A DNA stretch of 64,000 bases from Candidatus Zhuqueibacter tengchongensis (GTDB lineage: Bacteria > Zhuqueibacterota > Zhuqueibacteria > Zhuqueibacterales > Zhuqueibacteraceae), in contig JAPDQB010000038.1 in assembly GCA_034506175.1 (NCBI GenBank), positions 2,003 to 66,002 on the forward strand. The letters are read 5' to 3'. A program made the translations under genes and the position numbers. Position 1 is the first letter of the stretch; each line of letters starts with the position of its first letter. Positions 31,542 to 59,225 of the stretch are shown here, piece by piece. The notes below the pieces were generated by a model. It was not told the origin of the DNA and ran no database searches. It saw nothing but the letters and a program-made list of their open reading frames with translations.

Positions 31542-31642
31542 CCACGCGTAACTGAGACATTATTTTTTTCGCTGAACCGTATTGTCTATCAAAGAGGGTG
31601 GAGTCGCCTTCAGGCGACTTCCAAATCTGATGAATCATCATC

Positions 31643-34156: not shown

Positions 34157-34198
34157 AGGGCATCGCGAGGCTAGAAGTGTTACGTCATGACATTTTGT

Positions 34199-34255
34199 TG
34201 TAGTGCCTTTAAGCACTTGAAGTGCCGAACTTGCTGACCCTGAAGGGTCCACTAC
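34199..34255 (-). repeat. GTAG-headed double hairpin (family E), copy 2
   Basis: The minus strand reads GTAGTGGACCCTTCAGGGTC ... AGTGCTTAAAGGCACT. This is the same two-hairpin layout as 48233-48295. Confidence 0.65.
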
Positions 34256-34266
34256 CAAAGCTACTT

Positions 34267-36744: not shown

Positions 36745-36800
36745 AGAGTGCCTCTCTTTGCTTTTTTCGTTAGCGCGGCTTTGGCCGCAACCAAATGCAT

Positions 36801-36840
36801 TGTAAATTTTAAATTGAAAATTTTCAATTTAAAATTTACA
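36801..36840. promoter_or_regulatory. Perfect 40-bp AT-rich palindrome (candidate operator) between rpiR-like gene and TonB-dependent receptor
   Basis: TGTAAATTTTAAATTGAAAA|TTTTCAATTTAAAATTTACA, with the two 20-nt halves exact reverse complements. It lies 57-96 nt upstream of the receptor start and 54 nt downstream of the regulator stop. Confidence 0.55.
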
Positions 36841-36893
36841 ATTATCTTCACGAATGACACTTTTAAGCAATTGGGTGAACTTTTGCCTTTCTC

Positions 36894-38974: not shown

Positions 38975-39029
38975 AATGCCTCCTCTTGAAAAATAGGGTG
39001 AAAAGTTTTGTAAATTGATCTCGTGATAA

Positions 39030-41329: not shown

Positions 41330-41416
41330 AGCAGTGCAATCAGTGATAAAAGAGGCGTGATGAAAATTCGAACGTCAGGAATTGAATAGGGTAGTGTACG
41401 CTTTGTTAATCCCGAT

Positions 41417-41649
41417 TCCTCTGAAAATAAGTTCGTCGTTGCGCCTTTAGGCGTCGGGCTCCCGACAAAAGTTAAACGCCTGAAGGCGACACGACAAACG
41501 TTTATTTTCATCATTATCGGGTGCCGCGCCCGGCATGGGCAATTACCACGAAAATGCCGTGGCGCAGGCTTCCAGCCTGCCTGCAGACAAGATGTCTGCG
41601 CTGCATTTTCATCGCGATGGGTGTCCAAACGGACATGAACAATTACTCC
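41417..41649 (-). repeat. ~230-nt composite structured repeat, copy B2
   Basis: Its reverse complement aligns with B1 and B3 over the full length. It lies between the M20 peptidase and cyanophycinase genes, in the sense orientation. Confidence 0.85.
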
Positions 41650-41700
41650 AGAAAAACTATCCCTGGCCTGCGGCAGGGCAGGCACGACCGCGAGGATTTT

Positions 41701-41752
41701 GTAGCGCAAGCTTCCAGCTCGCTTTTGTTTGCAGACTGGGAGTCTGCGCTAC
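41701..41752. repeat. REPIN-like inverted pair of GTAG-headed palindromes
   Basis: GTAGCGCAAGCTTCCAGCTCGC ttttgtt TGCAGACTGGGAGTCTGCGCTAC. The right half is the reverse complement of GTAGCGCAGACTCCCAGTCTGCA. Confidence 0.75.
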
Positions 41753-41764
41753 GAATTATCGGGG

Positions 41765-42883
41765 TCAATCCGGTTCGACCAGAGCGAAAGCAATCTCTGC
41801 GGTTTTAATGAGATCCTCAATCAGGACGAATTCCTCAACGGTGTGGGGCTTCTGGGCGCCAATGCCGAGGTTGATCGCCGGTAGTCCTTTGGCATTCCAG
41901 ATATTGGCGTCGCTTCCTCCCATGTAACGAATCGGATTCGGTACGAGAGCAACAGCGCGCAACGCGCGCTCCAGCGCTCTTACCACCGGCGCCTCGGGAG
42001 CGTGCCCATAAGGCTCGAAATCGTCGTAACTCTCGAAATGGAGGGCACCAATGCCGTTCACCGTACGTGCCGCCGTATCGCGAATCGAAGCGATCTGCTC
42101 TTGAATCCGCCGGCGGGAAAAAGAACGCACTTCCCCTTCAACCACCACTTTGTCCGGAACAATATTGATGGCGGTACCGCCGTGGATTTTTCCGAGATTG
42201 GCCGTCGTCTCCGTATCAATGCGACCGGTTTTGATTTGTGCCAAAGCCGTACTGGCCAAGGCGATGGCATTGATGCCTTCCTCGGGAGCAACCCCAGAAT
42301 GTGCAGCCTTGCCGATAAAAGTGAGTTGAAAAATCGTGGACCCGACACATTCGCGAATATAAGTGCCCGGTCGCCGCGAACAGTCGAAGACAAACGCCTG
42401 TTTGAGGTTGAGCCGGGATAAATCCAGTTGCGTGGCGCCCAGCATGCCGATTTCCTCGGCAACGGTAAAAACGACCATGAAATTCTTATGCGCGCGGCCT
42501 TGCCGCGCCAAAGTCAACAGGAGATGAACCAAGACGGCAACCCCGAGACGATTGTCCGCGCCTAAAATCGTTTTGCCATTGGTGCGCACGGCGTCACCAT
42601 CCGCCACCGGCTCGAGGCAGGCGGTCGATTGAACCGTGTCGAGATGTGCATTGAGAAGCAGAGCCGGTTCGTGCGGGTTGAAATCAGGCGGCAGGCAAAT
42701 TAGATTTCCCGTATTGCCCTGAAGACGTTTTCCGGCGTCGTCCTCCTGCACCCGGATATCATTTTGGCGCAGGAGCCCGATGATTTCATCGGCAATCCGC
42801 CGTTCGCCGAGAGCAACGCCCTCGATCGGCAACAGGCGCAGAAACAACTGCTGGAGAGCCTCCGGGTCGACGCACTTTGTCAT
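41765..42883 (-). CDS. Peptidase M20 family (PepT-like) metallopeptidase
   Basis: M20 motifs: LLNAHLDTVQ, GADNRLGVAVL and FTVAEEIGMLGA. I set the start at ATG 42883 because the longer track ORF (to 42961) begins inside a consensus promoter. Confidence 0.75.
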   Translation of the reverse strand: MTKCVDPEALQQLFLRLLPIEGVALGERRIADEIIGLLRQNDIRVQEDDAGKRLQGNTGNLICLPPDFNPHEPALLLNAHLDTVQSTACLEPVADGDAVRTNGKTILGADNRLGVAVLVHLLLTLARQGRAHKNFMVVFTVAEEIGMLGATQLDLSRLNLKQAFVFDCSRRPGTYIRECVGSTIFQLTFIGKAAHSGVAPEEGINAIALASTALAQIKTGRIDTETTANLGKIHGGTAINIVPDKVVVEGEVRSFSRRRIQEQIASIRDTAARTVNGIGALHFESYDDFEPYGHAPEAPVVRALERALRAVALVPNPIRYMGGSDANIWNAKGLPAINLGIGAQKPHTVEEFVLIEDLIKTAEIAFALVEPD

Positions 42884-42940
42884 GATTTGCACCAATTGTT
42901 TCACAAAAATGATTAACTGAAACAACTGACTCGCCGCCAT

Positions 42941-42969
42941 ATTATAATAACGTTCTTTCAATTTGTCAA
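42941..42969 (-). promoter_or_regulatory. Consensus sigma70-type promoter (TTGACA-17 nt-TATAAT)
   Basis: The minus strand reads TTGACA aattgaaagaacgttat TATAAT, about 55 nt upstream of the M20 peptidase ATG at 42883. Confidence 0.55.
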
Positions 42970-43112
42970 GTGTTTTTTTCTTTTGCTAAATTCTCTTTTT
43001 TCGATTTATATTGTAGCCGGAACCATGTCGCGGTTTATTGAACCGTGATAGGGGATCATCATACCATCGTTTTGTCATGACAATCGAATCTATATTTCCG
43101 AGAGGCGTTGCA

Positions 43113-44216
<1,104 letters not shown>

Positions 44217-45133
44217 TAACAGAGTAGTGTCAAAATTTTCCAGATTTTTTACTGTGAATTGTTTTATTTATCTGCAATTGATTATCGTTTAACCCTCCTC
44301 CCCCTAAGCCGTCAACTGTTTTATTCACGGAGACGTTGTCATGACGAGTATCAATCGTTTCGTGATTTGGCTTTGTTCGCGCTTTGAGCGTGAGCAACTC
44401 GAACAGATTGTTCAGCAACTCCAGGAGATTTTCGCCAATCGCAACCCCGAAATCAAACTCAAGGACGATTTTTAAAAAAAACACCCAAACTACCGAGAAT
44501 TCTCCGTCGATCCCACACCACTGTTAAAAGCGCCGCCACTTGCCCCACCAAGTCCCAAAGTGAATTGGCGGGAACGCCTCGCGGCGTTTTTTCGCACGCA
44601 TGGGTGTCACCTGCTTCCGGTCTTGTTCAATCATTGTCTCATGCCTAAGAAAACGCAAAAGCTTTCGCCGGTTAACCACTCGTGATCCGTTCTCCTCACT
44701 TGTCTTTTCACTTATCCCTCCCGTTTTTCATAAAACTTTTGACACTACCCAATTAGCGCCTTCAACTTTTGGGTGGGCTTATCGCCGGAATTTCAATCAT
44801 TCTCAAAAAATCGAAAATGTGTCATATTTTTAAACAAATTCCCTTCAAAAGTCAAGAATGTTTCAATTCTTGCATGCAATTTTTTAACTGAACCGGTATT
44901 GTCTCTGCGGGCCATGACGGACAAAAGACACGGCGCCCCTGTGATGTTGTTTCCCGGCAATATTTTTCCCCAGCTCAAATTCACTTCCGTAATTTTCCGC
45001 GATTGTCTGTATATACTATTCAGCTTTTAAAAAGCGTTTGGAAGCCAATGACGCCGAGTGAATAAAATTCCGTTCCTAAGATTTTGTTCAACTTGTTCTC
45101 AGGGACGGGAATGAGTCAGAATAGATAAGAACC

Positions 45134-48100
45134 ATGTTGTCTTTGAGACTGCGGATGGGAAACGAGAAGCGGAGAGCAGCAGGCAAAGTGCAGCGGGCAA
45201 AGTGCAGCGGGCAAAATCGCATTCTTTTTTGCTTGTTGCCACTTGCCACTTGCCGCGTGCTTGTGTGTGTCCTCGCCGTTCAGCTTTTGCCGCTCGCCGC
45301 TCTTCGCGCGCAAACCCCGGATTTTCCTTTAAAAGCTAATAAGGAAGAGTCGGAGCCGTCCGCCAAAACACAGGCCGCTTTCAACCCCGACCAAATCATC
45401 CCCTACGAAGATCGCCTGCGTTTTTATCTCGATCTCAAAACCAAGGATTTTCTGGTCGAGATGGCCGATAAAGAAATGATTTTGCTGCAAACCATCGAGA
45501 ACGTCACGGCGGAAGTCAAGCAGCGCGGCCTCGACGGCATCGTGAACGACGATGCCGGGTTCAACGTCGTTTACCAAAAAACGCAGACGCTGACCGACAG
45601 CTACACCGCCGAGCTGGAAGCGATTCTGGCGATGATCGATGAAATTTCCGCGCTGTCCGGAACCCTGGAGAAAGAGCGGCAGTACGGGCTTCTGGAAAAA
45701 TTTCAGGATTTGAAAGCGCGCCTGGTCGCCGCGCTGGAAGACCGCAAATTATACAAAAAAGCGCCGGCCACGCCGAGCCACGTCGCCGGCTTGATCAAAG
45801 AATACGGCGGCGAAGTCGACTCGCTGTTGCGGATTTATCATCGCCTGGAAAAATTCCGGCGGCTGGCGGAGGCAAAAGGCGACACGGCGGTGTTGCCGCT
45901 GGTGGAGAGGCAGAAGGCGAGTCTCTTGCGGATGGTGGCCGATCTCAAAAGCGACACCACGCGTACGCCGGATTTGGCCGAGGCCTTTCTCAAAGAAACC
46001 GAACAGGTCGCGGCGCTGTTGCTGGAGCTGGATAAACTCGAAAAAACCGCCACCACTTCGTTGGAGACGACGATTGAGGTCGAGGCCGTGCGCCGGAATC
46101 TGGTGGCAAAGATCGACACCCGGCTGTTGCAGCTTTTCGGATTTTATCAGTACGCCAACACCCGCAAGCCCAGCCTCGACGAGGTTTTTCACGCCTGGCG
46201 CGGCGAACGTTTGGCGGATTATCAAGCGCGGTCCGCTGAATATGAGGTGATGAAGAAACGCCTGCTCACCACCGGTGGCGCCAAAGAGCGCCGCCGCATG
46301 CTGGAGCGGGATTTGACCAATGCGCTGCTGAATTATGCGGCGGAGCGTTATCGCGTTGCCGAGCTGCAATTCGATGCAATTATTCGGGATTACGACCGCT
46401 ATTTTTCGAATTGGGACGCGATTAAATTTTATCGCGCCGAATCATTTTACGCCCGCCAGCTTTATCCCTCGGCTTTTGAAAGTTATGAAGAATTGCTGCG
46501 GAGCCATCCTGACTCCAAATTTCTCGGCTTGACGCTGCTGCGCCTGATGACGATTGCGCACACGCTGAAATGGGAACAGCCTTTTTTTGCATACTATCAT
46601 CGCCTTGACAGCCTGGCTCAGGCGGGCGGCCCGAACGCCGTGCCTTCCCGCGTGGTCGAGCGCGGCCGTTATTTGGCGGGATACTATAATTTGAATTTGG
46701 AAAAATATTCGGAGGCCGAAGCAGCGCTCAGCCAGATTCCGCCGCCGTCGCGTTATCATTTTGCGGCGCAATATCTGCGCGGCATTGCGCAAACGCATCT
46801 CGGCAATCTTTCCGCGGCTTTTTTGCATTTTCAATACGTCGCCGAAACCACCAGCGGTTTTAAAGAGCCGATCACCGGTTTGGCGTTGGCCAATCCGACC
46901 AACACGTTGATTCAAAACAACGCGATGATGCGGCTCGGCTTCATTTATTATCAACGCGGCGAGTTCGCCAATGCGATTCGTTATTTTGAAAAAGTCTCGC
47001 GCGGCGCGGAGAATTATGATCAGGCGCTCATCGGCTTGTCGTGGGCCTATTTGAAGCAGGGCGACTTGCAGCGCACGATGGCCGCCGCCGGCTCGGTGCT
47101 GAGTAATTATTTGTCGTCGAATTATCAGTATGAGGCCATGGTGCTTTCGGCGCATTGCCAGCGGCTGCTCAATCAACCGGAAAGCGCGCTGGAGGAATTT
47201 CGCTATGTGGCCAATGCCCACGGCGTGCTCGATTTGGCAAAGGGGTATCAAGATGAACGCGCCCAAATTCTCGCGCAGCTCGGCGAAGTCGACCGCCTGG
47301 AAAAAACGGCGCTGGAACATCAGGATCGCCAGCTGTACGCCATCATCGCTGAAGTCCGCCAGACTTTGTTCGGCATGATGAACGGTTTCGGTTTTCGCAG
47401 CAACACCGGCGCGAGGTTGATCGACAATTTTTCCGAAGAGCGGCAAAGTGTTTATCGACAGATTCAGCAATTGGATCGCCTGGTTGCGGAAGCTAATGCA
47501 ATGGGGTTGATTGACGTGGCGCGCGATGCCATCGAGCGGCGCAACCGCCTGGTGCGTGTCTTGGAGACGTATCAGGCCGACCGTTCGATTGAGAATGTGA
47601 ATTATTTCATCGACTATCCGCTGGCAACCAAGGAGAGCAGCGCCGCCTACCGCCGGCAGATCGTGCTGAATTTGTTTAAAGAAATGGAAGCGGAGCAGAA
47701 CCGTCTGAAGGAGAATCTCGCGGCTGCCAACCGCCTGGTCTCGTCGCCAACTGCCGGACGCGACCTCAGCGTCGCCATCGATTTGAAGGCGGTGCAGGAT
47801 GATTTCAAAGCGCTCAAATACCGCATGGATCGGTTTCAAACCTGGCTGTCGACTTACAAAGTCGATGAGGTGGCGACGCAGGCGGATTTGTGGGCGGATG
47901 TGTCCGGCTTCGGCATGAGCGATATTGCCTTTCGCCAGCTCAACCAGCGCGAGCAGCAGATCAATTTGTATTCACAAAATCTCACTTCGATCGACAACAT
48001 TCTGCGCGACCGCAAGAGCACGCTGGAAGAGATGCTGAAGGTTTTTGACAAGGAAATGCGCAAAATCGAGGAAGATTTGCTCAATGAGCAGGTTCGCCTC

Positions 48101-48226
48101 GACAAGCTGGAGCACGAGACCTATTTTAAAAAGTCTTATTTCGACCTGTCCACCTCCGAAATTGGCGTTGGCACGGCGCCCAAATCGCCGACTGTCGAAG
48201 ATATTTTGAAGGATCAAATTCCATAA
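45134..48226 (+). CDS. Giant envelope-associated coiled-coil/TPR protein (1030 aa)
   Basis: An N-terminal hydrophobic segment (LVCVLAVQLLPLAALRAQ), long heptad-like stretches at both ends, and central TPR-like repeats (e.g. NNAMMRLGFIYYQRGEFANAIRYFEKV, ALIGLSWAYLKQGDLQ). Confidence 0.75.
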   Translation: MLSLRLRMGNEKRRAAGKVQRAKCSGQNRILFCLLPLATCRVLVCVLAVQLLPLAALRAQTPDFPLKANKEESEPSAKTQAAFNPDQIIPYEDRLRFYLDLKTKDFLVEMADKEMILLQTIENVTAEVKQRGLDGIVNDDAGFNVVYQKTQTLTDSYTAELEAILAMIDEISALSGTLEKERQYGLLEKFQDLKARLVAALEDRKLYKKAPATPSHVAGLIKEYGGEVDSLLRIYHRLEKFRRLAEAKGDTAVLPLVERQKASLLRMVADLKSDTTRTPDLAEAFLKETEQVAALLLELDKLEKTATTSLETTIEVEAVRRNLVAKIDTRLLQLFGFYQYANTRKPSLDEVFHAWRGERLADYQARSAEYEVMKKRLLTTGGAKERRRMLERDLTNALLNYAAERYRVAELQFDAIIRDYDRYFSNWDAIKFYRAESFYARQLYPSAFESYEELLRSHPDSKFLGLTLLRLMTIAHTLKWEQPFFAYYHRLDSLAQAGGPNAVPSRVVERGRYLAGYYNLNLEKYSEAEAALSQIPPPSRYHFAAQYLRGIAQTHLGNLSAAFLHFQYVAETTSGFKEPITGLALANPTNTLIQNNAMMRLGFIYYQRGEFANAIRYFEKVSRGAENYDQALIGLSWAYLKQGDLQRTMAAAGSVLSNYLSSNYQYEAMVLSAHCQRLLNQPESALEEFRYVANAHGVLDLAKGYQDERAQILAQLGEVDRLEKTALEHQDRQLYAIIAEVRQTLFGMMNGFGFRSNTGARLIDNFSEERQSVYRQIQQLDRLVAEANAMGLIDVARDAIERRNRLVRVLETYQADRSIENVNYFIDYPLATKESSAAYRRQIVLNLFKEMEAEQNRLKENLAAANRLVSSPTAGRDLSVAIDLKAVQDDFKALKYRMDRFQTWLSTYKVDEVATQADLWADVSGFGMSDIAFRQLNQREQQINLYSQNLTSIDNILRDRKSTLEEMLKVFDKEMRKIEEDLLNEQVRLDKLEHETYFKKSYFDLSTSEIGVGTAPKSPTVEDILKDQIP

Positions 48227-48232
48227 TTTTTT

Positions 48233-48295
48233 GTAGTCGTCCCTTCAGGGACTGAATGCAGCATCATTATCGAGAGTGCCTAAAGGCACTGCGAC
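48233..48295 (+). repeat. GTAG-headed double hairpin (family E), copy 1
   Basis: GTAGTCGTCCCTTCAGGGACT ... AGTGCCTAAAGGCACT GCGAC, located in the gap between the two giant TPR genes. Confidence 0.65.
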
Positions 48296-48306
48296 GAAAC
48301 AGAATA

Positions 48307-51300
48307 ATGCGACGACCTCAGCATAAAATTTTCTCGCCAATCGTTTTGTTGCTCAGCCTCGTCATCTTGGACGCAAGATTATTGGCGCAAGCGAACAACG
48401 CTGGCGATGCGAGTGACAAACCCCGCCTGGTTTCTCCGGCTGAGAAGGCGAAGGAAGCGGTTTTGTCTCGCCGGGGCAAGGCCGGCCGCGACACCGTCTT
48501 GCGCGCGTACAGCATCAACGATTTGCTGGAGTACAAGGATTTCTACGAGCGCGAGCGTTTTCGTTTGGAAAGCGAACGGGCGTTTTTGCGCGATAAAGGC
48601 ATCAGCGACATGGAAGCGTTTTTGGCGAACCATCCCAAAAGCAAAATCCTCGACAAGGTGATCGTCCGCCTCGCCGAGCTGCATTACGAAAAAGCGCTGG
48701 AAGCCTACAACCGCGATCAGGAAAATTACAGTGTCCAGCTCGAGGCCCATGCCAAGGGGTTGTTGGCGGAGGCGCCGGTTGAGCCGAAGAAGGATTTCAG
48801 GCGCCCGCTGGAGCTTTATCAGCGCCTCATCGAACAGTTTCCGCAGAGCAAACTGGTGGATGACGCCAGTTATAACAAAGCGTTTCTGTTGGAAGATCTG
48901 GCGCAGCGTGATAGCGCTGTGGTGTTGTACGAAAAATTCGTGCAGGATTTTCCCGGCAGCCGGTACGTGCCGGAGGCGTTGTTCCGCGTCGCCGAATATT
49001 ATTTCAATCCGCCGGTCAATCAGGTCGAGCGCGCCATTGAAATTTACCGGCGGATTTTGCAGTACAACGACAGCCCCAAGTACGACGAAGCACTGTATCG
49101 CCTCGGTTGGAGCTATTATAAGCTGAATGATTATCCGCAGGCCATTTCTTATTTCACGATGTTGGCCGACGACATCAAGCGCGCGCAGCGGCTGGATCCG
49201 AAAAATAAAATCACCAATCCCAGCCTGGCGGAGGAGTCGATCGAATACATCGGCATCGCGTTTCTCGATTACAAAGGCGCATCGGCGGCGGCGGATTATT
49301 TGCACAGTGTCGGCGGCCGGCAATACGGCATCGATATATTGCGGAAGATCGGCGACGTTTACATGAACGTCAAGGAGGAATATGACAAGGCCATTCAGGC
49401 GTATCGACTGTTGCTCAAGATGTATCCGCTGGCGCCGGAAGCGCCAATGGTGCGCGCCAAGATCGCCGAATGTTATCGCGCCCTGGATGAGGAGCAGATG
49501 GCCTATTTGCAGCGCGACAGCCTGTTGGTGGAATACCACACCGGCTCGGCGTGGTGGCAGCACAACACCGACGACGATCTGCGCGCGAGGACGCATCAGC
49601 TCGTCGAGCGCGGGCTGCGCGAAAACGTCAATCTGCTGCTGAAACGCGCCGATGAAAGCAATGACATGACGCTTTATGCGCAGGCGGTGAGGGACAGCCG
49701 CAAATATTTGCGGGCTTTTCCGAAGGATTCCGCGGCCTCGCAAATTCATTGGAACATGGCGCTGACCCTCGACGCGAAATTGCGGCAGCACGACGCGGCT
49801 TATAACGAGTACATCAATTGCAGCAATTGGTACTGGAACAGCCGTTTCCGCAAAATGGCGGCGGAGAATGCCGTGGCCCTGGCGCAGGAAATTGCCGCCG
49901 CGGATACGGTTTCGCCGGTTGCAATGAAGCGCCCGGCGGTGATGCCGCTGAACATCGGCGAAATGAAAAACGCCATGCAAGACAGCACGGTGAAAGACCC
50001 GGCGGCGAAGCTGCGCCGCGCCTTGCATTTGGAGCGCCGCGAGCTGACCCCGGGCCAGATGAAACTGGCAGCGGCGCTGGATAATTACATCAAGCTTTTT
50101 CCGCATGAGCCGGAGACCGCGGAGCGCCTGGCGCAGGCCGGCGCGCTGTATTACAACAACAATGATTTCGCCGAATCGATCAAATATTTTAAAACGCTGA
50201 TCAGGCACTTTCCGGCAAGCCCGGCGGCGGAGTACGCCGAATATCTGCTGATGGAGAGCTATTTTGGAAAAATCGACTACAAAAGCTCGGAGATCGTCGC
50301 CAAGCGCATTCGCCTGAACAGCAAGAACGCCGATTACGTTGCCAAGGCTGAGCAGCGTTTGGCGGAATCGATTTTTCTGCAAGCCGAGGGTTTGGCCAAT
50401 CTCGCCGAGCATGTGAAAGCCGCGGAAGAATATCGCCGCGTTTTTGAAGAAGTGCCGCAGGCCGAGTTTGCCGATCTGGCGCTGCACAATTCCGGCCTGG
50501 AGTTCGATCAGGCGCGCGAGTACAGCCGCGCCGTCGAAACTTACAATATGTTGGTGAGCACCTTTGCCAAGTCGCCGCATTATTTGTCGGCGCTGAACAA
50601 CATGGCCTACGATTACGGCGCGTTGAATGATTACCGCAATGCCGCGCTCACTTTTGAGCGCCTCGCTGCCGAAGATCCCGACAGCGCAAAGGGCGAAACC
50701 TATTTGTACAACGCCAGCGGCTTTTACGTCAAAGCCGAGGAATGGCAGCGCGCCATCCGTGTCAACCGCGCTTTCGTCTCGCGCTTTCCCAATTCGAGAG
50801 ACGCGGCGGACATGTTCTATGAAATCGCCAACTTTTATTTGAAGCTCGATGACTGGGACAACGCCAACGCCGTCTATGGCGAATATGCCGAAAAATTTCC
50901 CGACTCACCGCGCACCGTCGAAACCTATTATCGCCGCGGCGAATATTACGAGCACAAGAACGATCCGAATCAGGCGAAAATCGAATATGAGAAGGCGCTG
51001 GCCAAAAGCCGCTCGTTTCAGGCGCGGAAAATGAGCGCCAACGAATTTTTTGCGGCGGAGGCGCTGTTCCGGCTCACGGAAATCAAATACCGCGAGTTTG
51101 CGGCGATTCGCTTCAAGCTGCCGGTGGCGCAGATGGATTTGGATAAAGAACGCAAGAAAAATGCGCTGCTGGAAATCATCGACAATTACACCCGCGTCGC
51201 CGCTTATGGCACCCTGCGTTTATACGAAGCCACCTACAAGATTGGCGAGGCCTACGAGGAGTTTGCGGCGGCATGGGCGAATCAGGAAATACCGGAAATC

Positions 51301-53007
51301 GACGCCAATCGCCGCATTGTGGCGCGTAAAGAAATCGGCCAAACCGCCGCCGAGCTTTACGAGCGTGCGCTGCAGTCGTATAAACACGCCGCCCGCGCCC
51401 TCGCCCGGCTGACGACGCTATACACGAATCAAGCCGCGCAAATTTACGCCGCCGCCGATACCACGCTGTTCGAGCGCTCCGGCCGTCTGGCGCGCGAAGA
51501 CACCACGCTGCGGGTGGCGAACCGCTGGATCGAGCGCAGCCGCATGAAAATTTCCGAAGTGATTTATGCAATGGCGGAAAGCCATTCCGCCTCGCTCGAG
51601 CTGCTGTTGGAAGCGCCGGTGCCGGAGAATATGGACGAGACCACCGCGCTGGAATTTCGCAACCAATTGCTCGGCAAATTCATCAAGCCGCTGGTTGGCG
51701 AGATTGTCTCGACGCATCAACGCGGCTTGGCGGAGGCGGATTCGCTGCATCTCAACAATCATTGGGTGGAAAGATCGCGGGAGAAAATCACGGCGACGCA
51801 AAATATTCTGGCGCGCGAGTACGCCGATTTGAGCTGGCGTGCGCTGTCGCAGTACAAAGCCGATATTGCCGATTACAAAGCCTCGGTCAATTCCGGCGAC
51901 ATACGCTCGCTGGCGCTGCGGGACGAGATGGCGAATTTGATCGATTTCTCGCGGTCCTTTGCCAAAGCCGCGGTCGAAGCTTACGGTGTGACGTTCGATC
52001 GTGCCGCCGCCATCAAAACCGGCGGTAACGAGCTGCGAAAAACTGAAGACGCCGCCTTTAGTTTTGCCTATCGTTTCGCCACGACTTTGGATTCATTGGC
52101 GAAAGTTGCCAACGACGAACGCCGGGCTTACGATGCTTTGGCCAAGCAAGGCAATGTCCCCTCCGGCGCCCGAGCCGGAGCCGACGGCAGGGGCGAAGGC
52201 TGGCAAGACGCCGTGGTGGCGTTTGAAGACAACTACTACTCGCTGTCAGAAGGCAAGACGGAAGTTCTACGGCTCGGCTTTGACTTGTCGCAGAAACATC
52301 AGCTCGAGAATGCGTGGTCGGAGAAGATCGTTTTGCTTTTGGTGAAAAGCGAGCCGGAAAAATACGCCGGCCTGCTTGGGCTTCAGGTTGCTCAGCTTAC
52401 TCTGCCGACAGACGAAACGTGGCTGGTTCATACGGCTCATCAAACCGGCTGGACCGAAGCAAGCTTCAACGCCGCGGATTGGCAGCCGGCGCAAAGTTTC
52501 GGCGCCAGCGCGAATTTTCAAGGCTACGGCGCACAACGGCTGTGGCTGGCCGGCAATGGAACGGCGAGCGCGGCGATCAAGCTTGTCGATCTCGTGGATT
52601 CTGTTCGCGTTGATTCAACGGCTCTGGCGCCGGCACCGAGCCCGGTGATGTATTTTCGCAAAAATTTTACCGTCGAGGGCTTGCCGGTGTCGGGACAAAT
52701 TCAACTGTTGGCGGATGATTCTTTCAATCTGTTTGTCAATGGCGAGTACGTGGCGCAATTCAACAAACTGCCGAACGAAAAAGTCGCGGTGCAGATCAAA
52801 GATGTGTCCACCTATTTGCTCGCGGGTGAAAACACGATTGCCCTCGAGGTGCGCGACACTGACAACAGTGGCGGGGTTTTGGAAGCCGTGATCTTTGTGA
52901 AATCCGTGCCGGGCTGGCAGCAGCGTGAGGCGGAATTGCGCGCCAAAAGAGAGCGCCGGCTAGACTGGATGATTTTCGAGCGCGGCATTTTGCCGAATAT
53001 TTATTGA
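48307..53007 (+). CDS. Giant TPR-repeat protein (about 1566 aa) with C-terminal galactose-binding-like domain
   Basis: Signal peptide MRRPQHKIFSPIVLLLSLVILDARLLAQA. There are more than 20 TPR / YbgF-like repeats (e.g. DEALYRLGWSYYKLNDYPQAISYF). The C-terminus reads WQPAQSFG...MYFRKNFTVEGLPVSGQIQLLADDSFNLFVNGEYV...GENTIALEV. I moved the start from 48256 to 48307 because the upstream codons lie inside a repeat hairpin. Confidence 0.8.
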   Translation: MRRPQHKIFSPIVLLLSLVILDARLLAQANNAGDASDKPRLVSPAEKAKEAVLSRRGKAGRDTVLRAYSINDLLEYKDFYERERFRLESERAFLRDKGISDMEAFLANHPKSKILDKVIVRLAELHYEKALEAYNRDQENYSVQLEAHAKGLLAEAPVEPKKDFRRPLELYQRLIEQFPQSKLVDDASYNKAFLLEDLAQRDSAVVLYEKFVQDFPGSRYVPEALFRVAEYYFNPPVNQVERAIEIYRRILQYNDSPKYDEALYRLGWSYYKLNDYPQAISYFTMLADDIKRAQRLDPKNKITNPSLAEESIEYIGIAFLDYKGASAAADYLHSVGGRQYGIDILRKIGDVYMNVKEEYDKAIQAYRLLLKMYPLAPEAPMVRAKIAECYRALDEEQMAYLQRDSLLVEYHTGSAWWQHNTDDDLRARTHQLVERGLRENVNLLLKRADESNDMTLYAQAVRDSRKYLRAFPKDSAASQIHWNMALTLDAKLRQHDAAYNEYINCSNWYWNSRFRKMAAENAVALAQEIAAADTVSPVAMKRPAVMPLNIGEMKNAMQDSTVKDPAAKLRRALHLERRELTPGQMKLAAALDNYIKLFPHEPETAERLAQAGALYYNNNDFAESIKYFKTLIRHFPASPAAEYAEYLLMESYFGKIDYKSSEIVAKRIRLNSKNADYVAKAEQRLAESIFLQAEGLANLAEHVKAAEEYRRVFEEVPQAEFADLALHNSGLEFDQAREYSRAVETYNMLVSTFAKSPHYLSALNNMAYDYGALNDYRNAALTFERLAAEDPDSAKGETYLYNASGFYVKAEEWQRAIRVNRAFVSRFPNSRDAADMFYEIANFYLKLDDWDNANAVYGEYAEKFPDSPRTVETYYRRGEYYEHKNDPNQAKIEYEKALAKSRSFQARKMSANEFFAAEALFRLTEIKYREFAAIRFKLPVAQMDLDKERKKNALLEIIDNYTRVAAYGTLRLYEATYKIGEAYEEFAAAWANQEIPEIDANRRIVARKEIGQTAAELYERALQSYKHAARALARLTTLYTNQAAQIYAAADTTLFERSGRLAREDTTLRVANRWIERSRMKISEVIYAMAESHSASLELLLEAPVPENMDETTALEFRNQLLGKFIKPLVGEIVSTHQRGLAEADSLHLNNHWVERSREKITATQNILAREYADLSWRALSQYKADIADYKASVNSGDIRSLALRDEMANLIDFSRSFAKAAVEAYGVTFDRAAAIKTGGNELRKTEDAAFSFAYRFATTLDSLAKVANDERRAYDALAKQGNVPSGARAGADGRGEGWQDAVVAFEDNYYSLSEGKTEVLRLGFDLSQKHQLENAWSEKIVLLLVKSEPEKYAGLLGLQVAQLTLPTDETWLVHTAHQTGWTEASFNAADWQPAQSFGASANFQGYGAQRLWLAGNGTASAAIKLVDLVDSVRVDSTALAPAPSPVMYFRKNFTVEGLPVSGQIQLLADDSFNLFVNGEYVAQFNKLPNEKVAVQIKDVSTYLLAGENTIALEVRDTDNSGGVLEAVIFVKSVPGWQQREAELRAKRERRLDWMIFERGILPNIY

Positions 53008-53013
53008 GAGGGA

Positions 53014-53433
53014 ATGACAATGAAAATGCGGATGGTCGTTTTCGTGATGGCCTGTTGCTGGCCGATGGTTGGATCGACGCAAAGCGCGTCTGATCAGCCC
53101 AAAACCGCGACGCCGGACACCGTGACGTCAAAAGTGATGCAACCGCCTCAAACGGCGCGCCTTACCCAGCCGGATTCGTCCAAGCCGGCGCAGGAATTGG
53201 AGCTGGAAGCCATTGCCATCGAGGCCATCATTGAAAAGCCGAATGTCAACATCATCCCCCGGCGTCTGGAGCCGGATTTGGAAGAAGTGGAATTTGTCGA
53301 ACGCAGCTTTGATCGCGAGCTGAAGGAGGTGCCGCGCGACTTGCTGCTGCTCGACGACGACCTCGACCGCGTCGCCCGGCTCGAGGGTTTGAAGAAACTG
53401 CTGGAAAAGAAAAAGAACAAACAGGATAAATAG
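53014..53433 (+). CDS. Small secreted/charged protein, unknown function
   Basis: 139 aa: signal-like MVVFVMACCWPMVGS, a Pro/Gln/Ser-rich linker and an acidic C-terminal half with a lysine tail. It lies 6 nt after the giant TPR gene. An alternative start lies at 53020. Confidence 0.6.
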   Translation: MTMKMRMVVFVMACCWPMVGSTQSASDQPKTATPDTVTSKVMQPPQTARLTQPDSSKPAQELELEAIAIEAIIEKPNVNIIPRRLEPDLEEVEFVERSFDRELKEVPRDLLLLDDDLDRVARLEGLKKLLEKKKNKQDK

Positions 53434-53574
53434 TCAGTCTATCCTGTCATTGCGTGGGAATCCTTGTTTAAATGCGGAGGAGCGATCGTGATGAATAAAA
53501 AGGATTCTTTTGGAAGGACATTTTGATGTTTGTTAACAATCAATCAACTTTACACGTCGTTGGAGGATTCTGAT

Positions 53575-54225
53575 ATGGACGTTTTCATCAAAGCATTTAG
53601 TCCAAACGAGCCTGGGTTTTTGTACATGTATGTCATTGCTTTTGTCGGCGCCTTTGCGATTGCCATTGCGATCGAACGGGCTTATTACATTGTCGTCCGT
53701 TCCAATATCAACGCCGACAAGTTCATGGCCGAGATTCGCAAGCTGGTGAAAGCCGGCGAATACAAAAAAGCCGTGGCGCTTTGCGATTCCGCCGGCAGCA
53801 AGGCGCTGCCGCAAGTCGTGGTCACCGGGTTGCGCGTGGTCGCCGAAAGCGACACCACGGACTTCCGCACGATTCAAAACAGCGTTGACGAGGGCACGCT
53901 GGAAATTCTGCCCAAACTGCAGGCGCGAACCAATTTTCTGCCGCTGCTGGCCAACGTGGCGACGCTGCTCGGCTTGATGGGAACGATCTGGGGTCTGATC
54001 CTCGCCTTCCGTTCGGTGTCGGTTCCGGGCATCGACGCGACGCAAAAAGCCAACATGCTGGCTGCCGGCATCTACACCGCGATGAACACGACGCTGCTGG
54101 GATTGGCCGTCGCCGTTCCCACCATTTTGATCTACGCCTTCATCCACAACAAAACCGCCAAAATCATCGACGAGATCGACGAACACACCGTCAAGTTGAT
54201 TAACCTGTTAACCGGAAACCGTTAA
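53575..54225 (+). CDS. exbB: MotA/TolQ/ExbB proton-channel family protein
   Basis: Three transmembrane segments and the family motif LLANVATLLGLMGTIWGLILAF ... AAGIYTAMNTTLLGLAVAVP. GGAGGA lies 8 nt before the ATG at 53575. Confidence 0.88.
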   Translation: MDVFIKAFSPNEPGFLYMYVIAFVGAFAIAIAIERAYYIVVRSNINADKFMAEIRKLVKAGEYKKAVALCDSAGSKALPQVVVTGLRVVAESDTTDFRTIQNSVDEGTLEILPKLQARTNFLPLLANVATLLGLMGTIWGLILAFRSVSVPGIDATQKANMLAAGIYTAMNTTLLGLAVAVPTILIYAFIHNKTAKIIDEIDEHTVKLINLLTGNR

Positions 54226-54228
54226 ACC

Positions 54229-54774
54229 ATGGCCTTTCGACCTTCTCTTCGCCGTCATTTAAAAATGGAAAGCACCGACTTGAATCTCACGCCGGTCATG
54301 AACTTGATGGTGGTGATGATTCCGATGCTGCTCTCCGGCTCACAGTTTATCAAATTGGGCATCATTGAGCTGAATTTGCCGCCCGCCGCCGGCGCCAGCG
54401 TTGCCGGCAATCCAACTACGGCTTTGCCCAAGGAAGAGCAGCGTTCGCTGGATTTGACGATTTCGATCACCGCGCGCGGTTTTTACCTTTCGAGCGCCCT
54501 CACCGTACTGCATGGCAAAGACAGCGCCGGCCCGACGATCCCCGCGAAGCCGGACGGCGAATATGATTTTGTCGAGCTTGCCAAAAAACTGCACGACGTC
54601 AAACAAAAAGCGCAAGGCATTTTTCCCGATGCCGATGCGATCGTGTTGCAAGCCGAGAAAGATATTAAATACCAGACGCTCGTGGATACGATGGACGCCG
54701 CGCGCATGATCGAAATCGACGGCAAAGTGATCGAACTTTTCCCGCGCGTGGCTTTGAGCGCCGGCGTCATGTAA
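54229..54774 (+). CDS. exbD: ExbD/TolR biopolymer transport protein (1 of 2)
   Basis: The N-terminal LNLTPVMNLMVVMIPMLL anchor is typical of ExbD/TolR, followed by a periplasmic domain (AIVLQAEKDIKYQTLVDTMDA). Confidence 0.85.
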   Translation: MAFRPSLRRHLKMESTDLNLTPVMNLMVVMIPMLLSGSQFIKLGIIELNLPPAAGASVAGNPTTALPKEEQRSLDLTISITARGFYLSSALTVLHGKDSAGPTIPAKPDGEYDFVELAKKLHDVKQKAQGIFPDADAIVLQAEKDIKYQTLVDTMDAARMIEIDGKVIELFPRVALSAGVM

Positions 54775-54794
54775 ATTTATTTCAGGTTGAATTT

Positions 54795-55301
54795 ATGGCT
54801 TTTATTCCCTCCAAAATCAAGAAACACAAATCGGAGATGCTGGTGTCGCTCAATCTCACTTCGATGATGGACATGTTTACCATCATTCTGGTGTTCTTGA
54901 TCAAGAATTATTCGACCGAGGGGGCGCTGATCACGCCATCGGATTATCTGCATTTGCCGTTTTCACAAATTCAGAAGGCGCCGGAAAAAGGCCTGGACGT
55001 GATCGTGTCCAAGCAGGTTCTCATGGTGAATAACGAGCCGGTGGCGCCGATGGCGGACGTGGTGACGAACAACCCGGCGATTGTCGAACAGGGCGTCATC
55101 AAACCGCTGCGGGAGAAACTGCTGTTTTACAGCAGCCAGAGCAAGAAAATGGAAGTCGATTACGGCATCAAGTTTTCCGGCAAGGTCACCATTCAGGGCG
55201 ACAAGGATTTGCCGTACTCGGAGCTGGTGAAGGTAATTCGCACCTGCGGCCTGTCGGATTACCCGAATTTGCGCTTGGTGGTTTATCGTAAAACTGATTG
55301 A
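54795..55301 (+). CDS. exbD: ExbD/TolR biopolymer transport protein (2 of 2)
   Basis: LNLTSMMDMFTIILVFLI anchor followed by a periplasmic domain (VTIQGDKDLPYSELVKVIRTC). Confidence 0.85.
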   Translation: MAFIPSKIKKHKSEMLVSLNLTSMMDMFTIILVFLIKNYSTEGALITPSDYLHLPFSQIQKAPEKGLDVIVSKQVLMVNNEPVAPMADVVTNNPAIVEQGVIKPLREKLLFYSSQSKKMEVDYGIKFSGKVTIQGDKDLPYSELVKVIRTCGLSDYPNLRLVVYRKTD

Positions 55302-55324
55302 GCGCTGAAAAGCAGAAAATGAAA

Positions 55325-55388
55325 CAGACCGGTCACTTAAGATTTGTAGAAAGCCATAAATTTTTACGCACTCCAAGTGACCGGTCTG
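55325..55388. repeat. GACCGGTC hairpin element, copy 2 (14-bp arms)
   Basis: CAGACCGGTCACTT ... AAGTGACCGGTCTG, located between exbD2 and the TonB-like gene. Confidence 0.7.
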
Positions 55389-55440
55389 TGGCTGTTCAGA
55401 GAGTCATGCACGCCACACTTCATTAAATTTACGGCACACG

Positions 55441-56637
55441 ATGGCACTGAAAACACAACCGGACTCTGCCCGCAGCGACATTGCAGACGCGACCGGCGAG
55501 TCGTTGTCAAAAACGCCCGGCGATGAGGCGATTAAGATGACTTTTCCCAAAGTGTTTGAGAAATCACTGTCGGATTTTATCGACCGCCGGTTCATCGTGA
55601 TTTTGGCTCTGACGATTGCGGTTGATTTTGGCAGCATCGCTTATTTCTTGTCCACCGCGCCGGCCGACATGAGTGAATCCGATGCCGAACGCTTTCGGAA
55701 AAAATTTGTCGAGCTGGTTCGCGACAAAATCGAATCCGAACGCGAAGCCAAGTTTGTCGAGGCGCCGCCGTTAAAAGCTTTGCCGCCCGCGCTGATGCCG
55801 AAAAATGTTTCGGATGGCCCGGCCTCGGTGTCCGGGCGTCGTCCTGGCGCCGCGGTTTCACCGGGAGGAAGCAGCGAAACCCTCCTGGCAGGCGGGAGCG
55901 CAGAAACTCATACCGCGCCGGGTGCTTCCGGTCGCCGGACGCGGGAAGACATCAGCCATGCCGCCAGCCGTGCCGGCATTCTCGCGTTGCTCACCGGCAA
56001 GGGAGATGCAGCCACCGGCCGCGCCGCCGAAGATGTTTTGAGCGGCAACAAAACGCCGATGGCAAATCTCGATGAAGCGCTCACCAACGCCGGCGGCCTC
56101 CGGCGCGGCTCGACGCGAGAACTGGGCACGGCGATGAGCTCCGGCGGCGATGCTGTCGGCAATGGCAGCAACCGCAGCCGCGAAATACGCGGCGGCCGCG
56201 CCACGCATGTCGGCGGCATTGATGCGCTGGTGCAAGGTCTCGGCGAGGGCAAATCCCAAAGCGTGCAGCGTTCCGGCGGCCTGGAGGTCGGAAATCATGA
56301 GCCGCTCATCGAAGAGCCTTCCGAAGACGGCCGGGCCACCGGCTCACGCGATCGTGATGCGGTTGCCGCGGTGGTGGCGCGGCATACTTCCGCCATTCAG
56401 TTTTGCTATCAACGAGAAGTCCGGCGCCTTCCGAATCTTCGCGGTAAACTTGTGGTGCGTTTCGTCATCACCCCACAAGGCACCATCGCCAGCGTCACCG
56501 TCCTTTCCTCGACGTTGAACAATCCCACCGTTGAAAGCTGCGTCGTTGAGCGCATCAAGCGCTGGGACGATTTCGGCGCCATTGATCCCTCCAAAGGCAA
56601 CACGACGTTTCGGCAGGTTTATACGTTTGGGTATTGA
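55441..56637 (+). CDS. TonB-like energy transducer with AgmX/PglI-type C-terminal domain
   Basis: 398 aa: a cytoplasmic N-terminus, one transmembrane segment (FIVILALTIAVDFGSIAYFL), a long Gly/Ala/Ser/Pro/Arg-rich linker and a C-terminal domain with two Cys (IQFCYQREVRRLPNLRGKLVVRFVITPQGTIASVTVLSSTLNNPTVESCVVERIKRW). Confidence 0.75.
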   Translation: MALKTQPDSARSDIADATGESLSKTPGDEAIKMTFPKVFEKSLSDFIDRRFIVILALTIAVDFGSIAYFLSTAPADMSESDAERFRKKFVELVRDKIESEREAKFVEAPPLKALPPALMPKNVSDGPASVSGRRPGAAVSPGGSSETLLAGGSAETHTAPGASGRRTREDISHAASRAGILALLTGKGDAATGRAAEDVLSGNKTPMANLDEALTNAGGLRRGSTRELGTAMSSGGDAVGNGSNRSREIRGGRATHVGGIDALVQGLGEGKSQSVQRSGGLEVGNHEPLIEEPSEDGRATGSRDRDAVAAVVARHTSAIQFCYQREVRRLPNLRGKLVVRFVITPQGTIASVTVLSSTLNNPTVESCVVERIKRWDDFGAIDPSKGNTTFRQVYTFGY

Positions 56638-56838
56638 GGCCGGCGTAGTTTCTTGGTGATGGGCTTCACTCTCCTGTCACCCCGACTCTTCACCTAATTG
56701 ATCGGGTTGGGGCGGCATCCATTTTTCCCACGTCCTCGCAAAATTCCCCTTGCCTTTTGAGGCGAAAATTCCGATTTTATAAAGTGTCTTGGGAAGTCGG
56801 CTGTAGTAGCAATTTTAACTGTTTAAAAGCGCGGCCAA

Positions 56839-56879
56839 GCCGAATCTCAGAGAAGTAACTTGAGATCGGCATTTTTTTT
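56839..56879 (+). terminator. Rho-independent terminator closing the TPR-exbBD-tonB-like operon
   Basis: GCCGAATCTCA gagaagtaact TGAGATCGGC followed by ATTTTTTTT. Confidence 0.65.
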
Positions 56880-56979: not shown

Positions 56980-58749
<1,770 letters not shown>

Positions 58750-58830: not shown

Positions 58831-58903
58831 GAGCCTGTAGCTCAGCTGGTAGAGCAGCGGACTTTTAATCCGTTGGCCGGGAGTTCGATTCTCCCCAGGC
58901 TCA
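58831..58903 (+). tRNA. tRNA-Lys (anticodon UUU)
   Basis: Acceptor stem GAGCCTG/CAGGCTC, D-loop AGCTCAGCTGGTAGAGC, anticodon loop CTTTTAA, T-arm GGGAGTTCGATTCTCCC. No CCA is encoded. Confidence 0.9.
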
Positions 58904-58987
58904 CGAGACGGCAAAAAAGATAAAAAGAGAAAACCGGTAAAAACGAATGGTCTTTTTTCTCTGTTTATCCTTTTTGTTAGTGAAAAG

Positions 58988-59060
58988 GCGCCTATAGCTC
59001 AACTGGCAGAGCAGGTGACTCTTAATCACAAGGTTCCAGGTTCGATTCCTGGTAGGCGCA
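58988..59060 (+). tRNA. tRNA-Lys (anticodon CUU)
   Basis: Acceptor stem GCGCCTA/TAGGCGC, anticodon loop CTCTTAA, T-arm CCAGGTTCGATTCCTGG. Confidence 0.88.
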
Positions 59061-59139
59061 CGATGTGAAAAAAGATAAAAAGCAAAACGGAGCTTGAACT
59101 GTCTTTTTTGCTTTTTGTCCTTTTATCTTTTTTACCGAG

Positions 59140-59213
59140 GGGCCCTTAGCTCAGTTGGTTAGAGCGGCGGACTCATAATCCGCTGGTCGTAGGTTCAAGT
59201 CCTACAGGGCCCA
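59140..59213 (+). tRNA. tRNA with CAU anticodon (elongator Met, or Ile2 read via lysidine)
   Basis: Acceptor stem GGGCCCT/AGGGCCC, anticodon loop CTCATAA, T-arm GTAGGTTCAAGTCCTAC. The acceptor stem (C4, C5) and overall sequence resemble E. coli tRNA-Ile2. It lacks initiator features. Confidence 0.85.
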
Positions 59214-59225
59214 CCCGCAGGTGTT

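Follow-up and report, generated by a model that had tools for sequence, protein, structure and literature searches.

The closest described relative of the operon in this report is the core complex of the Agl-Glt machinery, which comprises gltC, gltD, gltE, gltG, aglR, aglQ, and aglS together with one extra gene (PMC3169522). It has been regarded since then as the nucleus of the Myxococcus gliding motor. Its genes cluster together in Geobacter, Fibrobacter succinogenes, and some Gamma- and Betaproteobacteria; a proteobacterial origin was assumed, with a transfer from Deltaproteobacteria to Fibrobacter proposed, and as of 2011 its function in nongliding organisms was unknown and it was judged insufficient for gliding (PMC3169522). 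The Fibrobacter cluster, Fisuc_1892-1897, encodes a tetratricopeptide repeat (TPR) protein GltC of 746 amino acids (aa), a TPR protein GltD of 1292 aa, a TolQ-like protein of 212 aa, a TolR-like protein of 164 aa, and a TonB-like GltG of 308 aa, and the Methylibium cluster, Mpe_A1224-1231, encodes proteins of 634, 941, 243 (GltE), 217, 170, 163, and 371 aa (PMC3169522). The operon that we set beside these consists of seven genes, g1 to g7, in a 64-kb stretch of DNA (the window, by which we mean the whole stretch analyzed) from a KSB1 (Zhuqueibacterota) metagenome-assembled genome (MAG).

Proteomic and structural work is available for the same machinery. In Fibrobacter, the TPR proteins FSU_2397/2398 and the proteins FSU_2400-2403 (ExbB, ExbD, ExbD, and TonB) were all six enriched in the envelopes of cellulose-grown cells, and a multiprotein complex of the outer membrane contained FSU_2397 together with the adjacent OmpA protein FSU_2396 (PMC6851124). 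Since both papers give the same order and annotations, it is likely that Fisuc_1892-1897 and FSU_2397-2403 are the same cluster. In an AlphaFold model of the Myxococcus Glt machinery, residues 428-543 of GltG wrap around GltD, and the end domain of GltG gains a strand from the small protein GltF (PMC11761067).

The operon spans positions 45134-56637 of the window as seven codirectional open reading frames (ORFs) on the plus strand, separated from g1 through g7 by gaps of 29, 6, 141, 3, 20, and 139 nucleotides (nt). Its features are as follows.

45134-48226, plus strand: g1, ORF of 1030 aa; the NCBI start at 45257 gives 989 aa
48256-53007, plus strand: g2, ORF of 1583 aa; a start at 48307 gives 1566 aa
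52390-52908, plus strand: C-terminal galactose-binding-like beta-sandwich of g2, residues ~1379-1551, followed by a terminal helix (AlphaFold2, Foldseek, Pfam)
53014-53433, plus strand: g3, ORF of 139 aa
53575-54225, plus strand: g4, 216 aa; the ORF reaches back to a TTG at 53530, and the ortholog alignment begins at the ATG
54229-54774, plus strand: g5, ORF of 181 aa
54795-55301, plus strand: g6, ORF of 168 aa
55441-56637, plus strand: g7, ORF of 398 aa
56338-56634, plus strand: AgmX/PglI-type C-terminal domain of g7, residues 300-398 (NF033768, AlphaFold2, Foldseek)
56839-56879, plus strand: intrinsic-terminator-like hairpin with U8 at the end of the operon (sequence and fold)
56980-58749, plus strand: aspS, adjoining the operon downstream; a synteny marker and no part of the machine

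This operon is probably a new relative of the known core complex and not a new type of system. The order of g1 to g7 matches that in Fibrobacter and Methylibium (TPR protein, large TPR protein, TolQ-like, two TolR-like, GltG-like); a sequence-only reading of the same DNA had likened the parts list to the core module of the Myxococcus machine. The motor and transducer proteins of the published complexes measure 212-217, 163-170, and 308-371 aa, compared to 216, 181/168, and 398 aa here. As in those complexes, the transducer has no forkhead-associated (FHA) domain, and an extra small gene precedes the motor genes; like Fibrobacter, the host belongs to the Fibrobacterota-Chlorobiota-Bacteroidota (FCB) superphylum and has a type IX secretion system (T9SS). 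The TPR proteins are much larger, at 1030 and 1583 aa compared to 634-746 and 941-1292 aa; unlike the published g2 counterparts, g2 ends in a lectin-like beta-sandwich, and the operon has no GltE-like gene. By gene order and size, g1, g2, and g4 to g6 are the putative counterparts of the published proteins. A slight balance of probability favors an operon that encodes a trans-periplasmic force transducer of the Tol/Ton family, of the Agl-Glt core-complex kind, acting on its own TPR scaffold.

The transducer, g7, carries the most specific signal. It has the single-pass layout of TonB and TolA, with a cytoplasmic head of ~50 aa, a transmembrane (TM) helix at residues 51-71, a linker, and a C-terminal domain. 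The end domain scores 85.1 bits against the AgmX/PglI C-terminal model NF033768 (cutoff 40), while the Pfam TonB_C model PF03544 reaches 21.2 bits, under its cutoff of 24.6; the sequence-only reading had likened the domain to AgmX/PglI rather than to classical TonB_C, and the profiles bear this out. Against the GltG equivalog model NF033760, g7 scores 80.7 bits (E 8.6e-23) over residues 199-376 (model positions 461-627), an alignment that extends upstream of the C-terminal domain into the linker and takes in the part that, in the Myxococcus model, is predicted to wrap around GltD; a Calditrichia homolog of g7 aligns with GltG positions 401-645. A gltG-like gene thus stands beside the motor genes, as in the core complex. 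All 27 of 27 g7 homologs match the GltG, AgmX/PglI, GltJ, and TonB C-terminal models, with best E-values of 7.5e-41 for GltG, 9.8e-28 for the AgmX/PglI domain, and 2.2e-10 for the TonB C terminus. Several homologs are named "AgmX/PglI C-terminal domain-containing protein" by PGAP, and they are often named "TonB family protein" by JGI and NCBI.

The fold of the g7 end domain is TonB-like, and its nearest sequence family is GltG/GltJ. In the AlphaFold2 model, the domain has block-mean pLDDT values of ~80-93, with 7 of 10 blocks above 90, and its top Foldseek matches are the TonB C-terminal domains of FusB (7zc8) and Helicobacter pylori TonB (5lw8/6sly). The H. pylori entry is also the match reported for GltJ (PMC11761067). 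The domain opens with a conserved Cys-Tyr in the motif IQ-Y/F-CYQRE, and residues C322 and C367, invariant among the 27 homologs, may form a disulfide. Classical TonB has a Tyr-Pro motif where g7 has Cys-Tyr. The linker comprises ~230 residues, is Gly/Ala/Ser-rich and not Pro-rich, and contains conserved islands; the model shows a helix at 49-71 and disorder at 101-298.

At the other end of g7, the head carries the motif FPKxFE...D(K/R)RF in the alignment of 27 homologs and has no Pfam match to an FHA domain. Within the TM helix, a T/S-x3-(H/D/E/N) motif sits at the position of the S-x3-H motif of TonB and TolA; in the window it reads T58-x3-D62 (55612-55626), with Asp in the window's clade, Glu or Asn in some close relatives, and His in most KSB1 orthologs. 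An exhaustive profile search gave 264 representative clusters at E<1e-30; the relatives listed were full-length and of the same kind, and among ten looked up, those with a name were KSB1. The matches listed in protein searches with g7, g2, and a Calditrichota g7 were KSB1 or Calditrichota homologs, and a tblastn search of plasmids found no g7-type transducer. The g7 protein also has an exact copy in contig JAPDQD010000038.1 (GCA_034506095.1), with identical gene calls. Two unusual architectures were seen in these searches: a 1528-aa protein (P0371; NCBI/JGI/Logan) has a WD40 propeller, an FGE-sulfatase domain, and a 283-aa C-terminal part homologous to g7 residues 94-386, and three proteins (P0311, P0374, and P0382) have three tandem TonB_C domains each.

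The motor genes comprise one TolQ-like and two distinct TolR-like genes in a cluster, as in AglR5QS. g4 is a proton-channel subunit of the TolQ/ExbB/AglR type (Pfam MotA_ExbB, 82.3 bits), with 59-93% identity across 80 related loci. Its scores against the NCBIfam equivalogs are 51.6 bits for TolQ (cutoff 221) and 36.4 bits for ExbB (cutoff 206), and its best matches in a sequence search of the PDB, TolQ at 34 bits and ExbB at 30.6 bits, place it marginally nearer TolQ; taken together, the PDB sequence searches yielded marginal TonB, TolQ, and ExbB matches. g5 and g6 match Pfam ExbD at 47.5 and 43.5 bits, respectively, reach 16.8 bits for TolR (cutoff 127) and at most 26.4 bits for ExbD (cutoff 123) among the equivalogs, and gave essentially nothing against PDB sequences, with no match at all for g6. 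They are distinct and old paralog families, with cross-matches of ~20-30 bits and a longer linker after the TM helix in g5. At the site of the proton-binding Asp of ExbD/TolR, g5 has Asn25 (54301-54303); among 81 aligned sequences, the window included, 72 have Asn and 8 have Asp. g6 retains the transmembrane Asp26 (54870-54872), which is Asp in 79 of 79 aligned sequences, again with the window included. With Asn mostly in g5 and Asp always in g6, only one Asp of the motor axle would be open to protonation.

Two loci that match g4 were tried as outgroup core complexes and rejected as unrelated. One, among the strongest plasmid matches (lowest E-value 7e-15, 40% identity), lies at 4133-11337 of Vibrio alginolyticus plasmid pMBL287 and is a motor-transducer cluster of another sort; its products are a barrel of the outer membrane, an unknown protein of 726 aa, two small proteins, one TolQ-like and two TolR-like proteins, and a Pro-rich 324-aa putative transducer; the latter was assigned from position and composition, and no TonB/AgmX domain was found in it. 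The other, from Pseudoalteromonas, is TonB2-type.

The first scaffold protein, g1, is secreted and ~990-1030 aa long, with a signal-like start and a central TPR block at ~390-730 (Pfam TPR matches span residues 396-702). Its flanks are TPR-free, charged, and helix-prone by a crude profile of heptads, charge, and Pro/Gly; of the earlier description of g1 as a coiled-coil/TPR protein, the TPR half is established by Pfam, and the coiled-coil half is suggested by that crude profile alone. g1 scores 57.8 bits (E 8.6e-16) against the NCBIfam GltC model over residues 392-732, far from the cutoff of 450. It matches GltC across 340 residues, and the much more TPR-rich g2 does not. Among 34 g1 orthologs, the GltC model was matched in 23 and YbgF/CpoB in 33. 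By position, g1 takes the place of GltC in the core complex.

The second scaffold protein, g2, is secreted, 1566-1583 aa long, and built of many CpoB/BamD-like TPR units followed by a helical region and the beta-sandwich. Its Pfam matches include TPR_6 at 94 bits and YfiO at 35 bits, and it scores 105.9 bits (cutoff 90.1) against tol_pal_ybgF through repeated stretches, five of them at E <= 0.01 and eight at E <= 10. More than 120 full-length homologs of ~1500-1590 aa were found; those named are from KSB1 or Calditrichaeota, and JGI labels g2 homologs "TolA-binding protein." By position, g2 takes the place of GltD, and neither g1 nor g2 matched any NCBIfam model named for GltD or GltE. Two other origins were tried and rejected: a relationship of g2 to the T9SS protein PorW/SprE, with a match of 19 bits only, and a recent duplication giving rise to g1 and g2, which are distinct families (in one clade, a single protein matches both).

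The AlphaFold2 model of g2 residues 1201-1583 has a mean pLDDT of 85 and shows a helical bundle and the beta-sandwich. Most 10-residue blocks of the beta domain exceed a pLDDT of 90, with one disordered loop at ~1434-1458. The top Foldseek matches (E 1.6e-5) are the N-terminal sugar-binding domains of glycoside hydrolase family 2 (GH2) beta-glucuronidases and of LacZ, and Pfam Glyco_hydro_2_N matches weakly at 1456-1533. Several Trp and Gly residues are invariant among 24 homologs, and the domain is detectable in Calditrichota-type versions of g2 as well.

The small protein g3 starts with a hydrophobic stretch that resembles a signal sequence, and its mature part is acidic (pI 4.9), in agreement with the sequence-only reading of a secreted acidic protein. 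A core, I-x-IEAvIEKP-x-V-x-IIPKR ... RSF..ELK, is conserved in 72 aligned sequences, the window included. No Pfam or NCBIfam family was matched, and a resemblance of the motif to a TonB box was rejected as merely visual. Its place in the operon recalls that of GltF, or of the "additional gene" in core complexes, and g3 is a candidate adaptor.

The operon is far from confined to this genome. When genomes were scanned with the g4 alignment, 130 species-representative genomes, belonging to KSB1 and Calditrichota-labeled MAGs, proved to have relatives; the best 80 of these 130 loci and 2 further related loci, 82 in all, were compared together with up to 10 kb of flanking DNA to either side. g4 is present in all 82, g5 in 80, g6 in 78, g2 in 77, g3 and g7 in 69 each, and g1 in 65, with aspS downstream in 50. 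The genes lie on one strand and in the same order throughout, and most absences occur at loci cut by a contig end. Their recurrence in the same order in 82 independent loci shows that the operon did not come together by chance. In two phylum-level lineages, the motor genes strictly keep the giant TPR genes as neighbors, so that their pairing, which the sequence-only reading had made a point to check across related genomes, is real. Many loci have atpD-atpC just upstream and aspS, a LysM coiled-coil protein gene, phoH, and a 7TMR-HD gene downstream, and a 3.4-Mb contig of the Calditrichota type shows the same layout, aspS included. Neither the window nor any flank of the 82 loci showed a second motor or end domain. 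From the conserved order, fixed site, and single copy it follows that the operon is ancient and vertically inherited, and in these lineages it is probably indispensable; the published core complex, by comparison, is patchy in its distribution. We found no earlier description of the cluster in KSB1 or Calditrichota in the literature searched, and the Zhuqueibacterota paper and its supplements make no mention of tonB, exbB, or tolB.

A variant of the cluster was observed at four loci (L042, L051, L069, and L076) in Calditrichota-labeled and KSB1-2 MAGs. Three of the four have a single TPR protein of ~1360 aa in place of g1 and g2; the protein of L069 matches both, and L051 also retains a shorter g1-like protein of 599 aa. 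At the g7 position, these loci encode a single-pass protein of 258-308 aa with no detectable TonB_C/AgmX domain.

From the gene content, order, and conservation of the operon and from the domain homologies and predicted folds of its products, we infer how the parts might interact. The stoichiometry, the docking of g7, the binding of its linker to g1 and g2 and of its end domain to g3, and the binding of glycan are modeled on TolQRA, on ExbBD-TonB, and on the AlphaFold model of AglR5QS-GltG-GltD-GltF. g4 would form a pentameric proton channel, in which one g5 and one g6 would make a heterodimeric axle with the proton-binding Asp mostly on g6 only. The TM helix of g7 would dock on g4 through the T/S-x3-(H/D) motif, and proton flow would pull or rotate g7, whose long disordered linker would span the cell wall. 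Homology links the conserved islands of this linker to the part of GltG predicted to wrap GltD; they may bind g1 and g2 in their TPR grooves, and the putatively disulfide-braced end domain may capture a beta-strand from a partner, for which g3 is the best candidate. Through its lectin-like beta-sandwich, g2 might anchor the scaffold on a glycan, which would be peptidoglycan or a polymer close to the outer membrane. The operon is universal, single copy where sampled, set among housekeeping neighbors, and without gliding parts in the regions searched, which points to a core function in the envelope; the most likely role is energized tethering or remodeling between the inner membrane, wall, and outer membrane.

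The machine so described shares with the Agl-Glt and Nfs systems of Myxococcus a GltG-type transducer (the AgmX/PglI end domain and the GltD-wrapping linker stretch), a putative TolQ-like pentamer with a heterodimeric TolR-like pair, periplasmic TPR scaffolds, and a candidate small periplasmic adaptor. It differs from them in the absence of any detected GltA/B/H/K barrels or lipoproteins, CglB, GltI, GltJ, or link to AglZ or MglA, and in that Myxococcus GltG has an FHA domain while the g7 head does not and the equivalog scores are far below cutoffs. Clusters of the Planctomycetes-Verrucomicrobia-Chlamydiae (PVC) group resemble it as well, with a TPR protein, a TolQ-like protein, a heterologous TolR-like pair, and a single-pass transducer, although the end domain of their transducer is vWA (PMC12204202) and the one here is TonB/AgmX-type. 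The Glt-type parts list that the sequence-only reading had drawn up holds in part: a strong Glt-specific signal comes from g7 only, and for g1 the match to GltC is no better than the one to CpoB/YbgF.

Several observations weigh against assigning the operon to the core-complex kind. No Glt equivalog cutoff is reached, with GltG at 80.7 against 650 and GltC at 57.8 against 450, and g7 exceeds the generic TonB C-terminal model TIGR01352 (29.8 bits, cutoff 27.1). The scores of g4 to g6 are far below every TolQ, ExbB, TolR, and ExbD equivalog cutoff, and their likeness to the core-complex motor is one of gene order and composition. The likeness of g1 to GltC is no stronger than that to CpoB/YbgF, g2 was likened to GltD by position, and the operon has no GltE-like or GltE-sized TPR gene. 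The interactions and the glycan binding are all argued from analogy. Lastly, the window encodes two TonB-dependent receptors, so the cells need a TonB, and neither the 64-kb window nor the flanks of the 82 loci showed any further TonB or ExbB.

This last point leads to the possibility that the operon is an ordinary Ton system, in which ExbB, two ExbD proteins, and a divergent TonB energize the TonB-dependent receptors and the TPR proteins are cotranscribed accessories. The three-part layout and TonB C-terminal fold of g7, the TIGR01352 score, and the "TonB family protein" labels fit such a system, as do the shared motor families and the occurrence of a universal unit among housekeeping genes, and the Fibrobacter counterpart FSU_2400-2403 was itself read as a Ton system for cellodextrin import (PMC6851124). 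However, the best models for g7 are AgmX/PglI and GltG and not TonB, with Pfam TonB_C below its cutoff; the end domain has its Cys-Tyr start and invariant Cys pair, and the linker, with its conserved islands, is rich in Gly/Ala/Ser and not in Pro. Furthermore, a pair of periplasmic proteins of ~1000-1600 aa and a small protein have coevolved with the motor in two lineages, and a plain Ton system needs none of these. We regard a housekeeping Ton system as improbable.

A divergent Tol-Pal-type system seems to us about equally doubtful. Here, TolQ, two TolR proteins, and a TolA-like g7 with expanded CpoB-like TPR proteins would stabilize and constrict the outer membrane, with the equivalents of TolB and Pal encoded elsewhere or replaced, a function that overlaps with the tethering role proposed above. 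The resemblances are a 5:2-type motor, in which g4 has a slightly higher score for TolQ than for ExbB, a transducer in three parts with a polar TM residue, TPR units of the CpoB/BamD type, and a housekeeping context. The YbgF/CpoB matches speak for it too, with g2 above the cutoff via its repeats (105.9 vs 90.1) and g1 orthologs matching in 33 of 34 cases, as does the JGI name of the g2 homologs; Bacteroidetes lack recognizable tol-pal loci, and other systems that stabilize the outer membrane are expected (PMC12204202). On the other hand, tolB, pal, ybgC, and OmpA-type genes were not found in the window or in the flanks of the 82 loci, and the TolQ, TolR, and TolA equivalog scores are far under their cutoffs. 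g1 and g2 are several-fold larger than the CpoB model (PRK10803, 263 positions), there are two TolR-like types, one usually without the Asp, and the end domain is of the AgmX/PglI type with a Cys pair. Fibrobacter, with its collinear cluster, has a separate Pal and TPR lipoprotein, FSU_0603/0604 (PMC6851124).

A working surface transport system of the Glt/Nfs kind, for gliding or for a surface polymer and with its outer-membrane parts encoded elsewhere, is very improbable: the GltG-type transducer, the core-complex gene order, and the behavior of FSU_2397/2398 and FSU_2396 in cellulose-grown Fibrobacter (PMC6851124) are in its favor, but none of the seven Group A gliding parts (GltA/B/H, GltK, GltF, GltI, and GltJ) was found in the window or in the flanks of the 82 loci, the core complex alone was argued not to drive motility (PMC3169522), g7 has no FHA domain, and for Caldithrix abyssi the description gives flagellar genes and type IV pilus genes but no gliding machinery of the Bacteroidetes type. 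Nothing in the regions searched pointed to a function like that of the gliding/Nfs-type machine named in the sequence-only reading, with CglB and GltE also among the parts not found, and locomotion is an unlikely role for the operon.

The core-complex interpretation does not introduce a new concept, since the complex was already described outside the myxobacteria, an FCB member included, in 2011 (PMC3169522). What sets this unit apart is the giant size of its scaffolds, its lectin-like domain, a TolR paralog with Asn, a fixed site in the chromosome, and phylum-wide conservation. The unit is a compact parts list without the gliding add-ons, in which the lectin-like domain hints at the anchor of the scaffold and the TolR pair is a natural asymmetric one, with Asp in one subunit only. 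It is universal, occurs as a single copy where sampled, and usually keeps its site, with the ATP synthase operon on one side and aspS on the other, all of which suggests that its envelope role is an old, housekeeping one; the collinear unit in two FCB phylum-level lineages makes the direction of transfer worth retesting, and the Fibrobacter proteomics and the KSB1/Calditrichota conservation can be joined into one testable hypothesis. In its boldest form, which we consider speculative and rather unlikely, this would be an ancient, vertically inherited envelope machine of KSB1/Calditrichota, and perhaps of the wider FCB group, sister or ancestral to the myxobacterial gliding-motor module, whose GltG-type transducer would draw on proton flow to move or tension a giant TPR-lectin scaffold at the wall or outer membrane. 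If so, the cluster would stand in for Tol-Pal or would power a surface process like the polymer-adhesion complex of Fibrobacter, the proposed transfer from Deltaproteobacteria to Fibrobacter would be reversed, and the core complex would gain its first assignable function.

The basic description of the locus given by the sequence-only reading stands. All seven ORFs lie on the plus strand, and the cluster is closed at 56839-56879 by a bulged hairpin of -14.2 kcal/mol (z -2.3) followed by eight U, a terminator that a simple scan overlooked because of the bulge. Profile searches with Pfam and NCBIfam upheld the family calls of TPR for g1 and g2, MotA_ExbB for g4, and ExbD for g5 and g6. The window also encodes a PorV-like protein, two proteins with T9SS C-terminal sorting domains, and two TonB-dependent receptors, at 20225-22969 and 34267-36744, in keeping with a T9SS-bearing lineage. 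For the scan of the window, we took ORFs of >=150 aa not nested in longer ORFs of another frame or strand, as well as the gene calls downstream of the operon; five of the scanned ORFs had no Pfam match. No tolB, pal, OmpA, or Glt-type barrel gene was found among the scanned window ORFs of >=150 aa, which agrees with the earlier remark that no outer-membrane-barrel Glt genes and no tolB-pal are nearby.

Elsewhere in the window, a gene for a beta-eliminating lyase of the tryptophanase/tyrosine phenol-lyase type at 43038-44219 (plus strand) is broken across at least two reading frames and is either a pseudogene or the product of an assembly frameshift. The block at 28412-42961 contains two Peptidase_S51 genes and genes for an M20 peptidase, a DcuC-type carrier, an RpiR/SIS regulator, a T9SS-sorted protein, a PorV-like protein, and a TonB-dependent receptor, and may be a locus for the uptake and use of peptides or beta-aspartyl dipeptides. 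Four ORFs of 358, 345, 774, and 897 aa (14228-15304, 15939-16976, 25706-28030, and 31643-34336) have no Pfam match at E <= 1e-5, and two of them adjoin genes for a TonB-dependent receptor, a PorV-like protein, and T9SS-sorted proteins. A pst-phoU phosphate transport cluster at 7446-14212 on the minus strand has unusually long permease ORFs of 777 and 546 aa, each with a single BPD_transp_1 domain at its C-terminal end. Downstream of aspS, genes for tRNA-Lys(UUU), tRNA-Lys(CUU), and tRNA-Met at 58831-59215 replace the LysM-phoH-ybeY block of most relatives.

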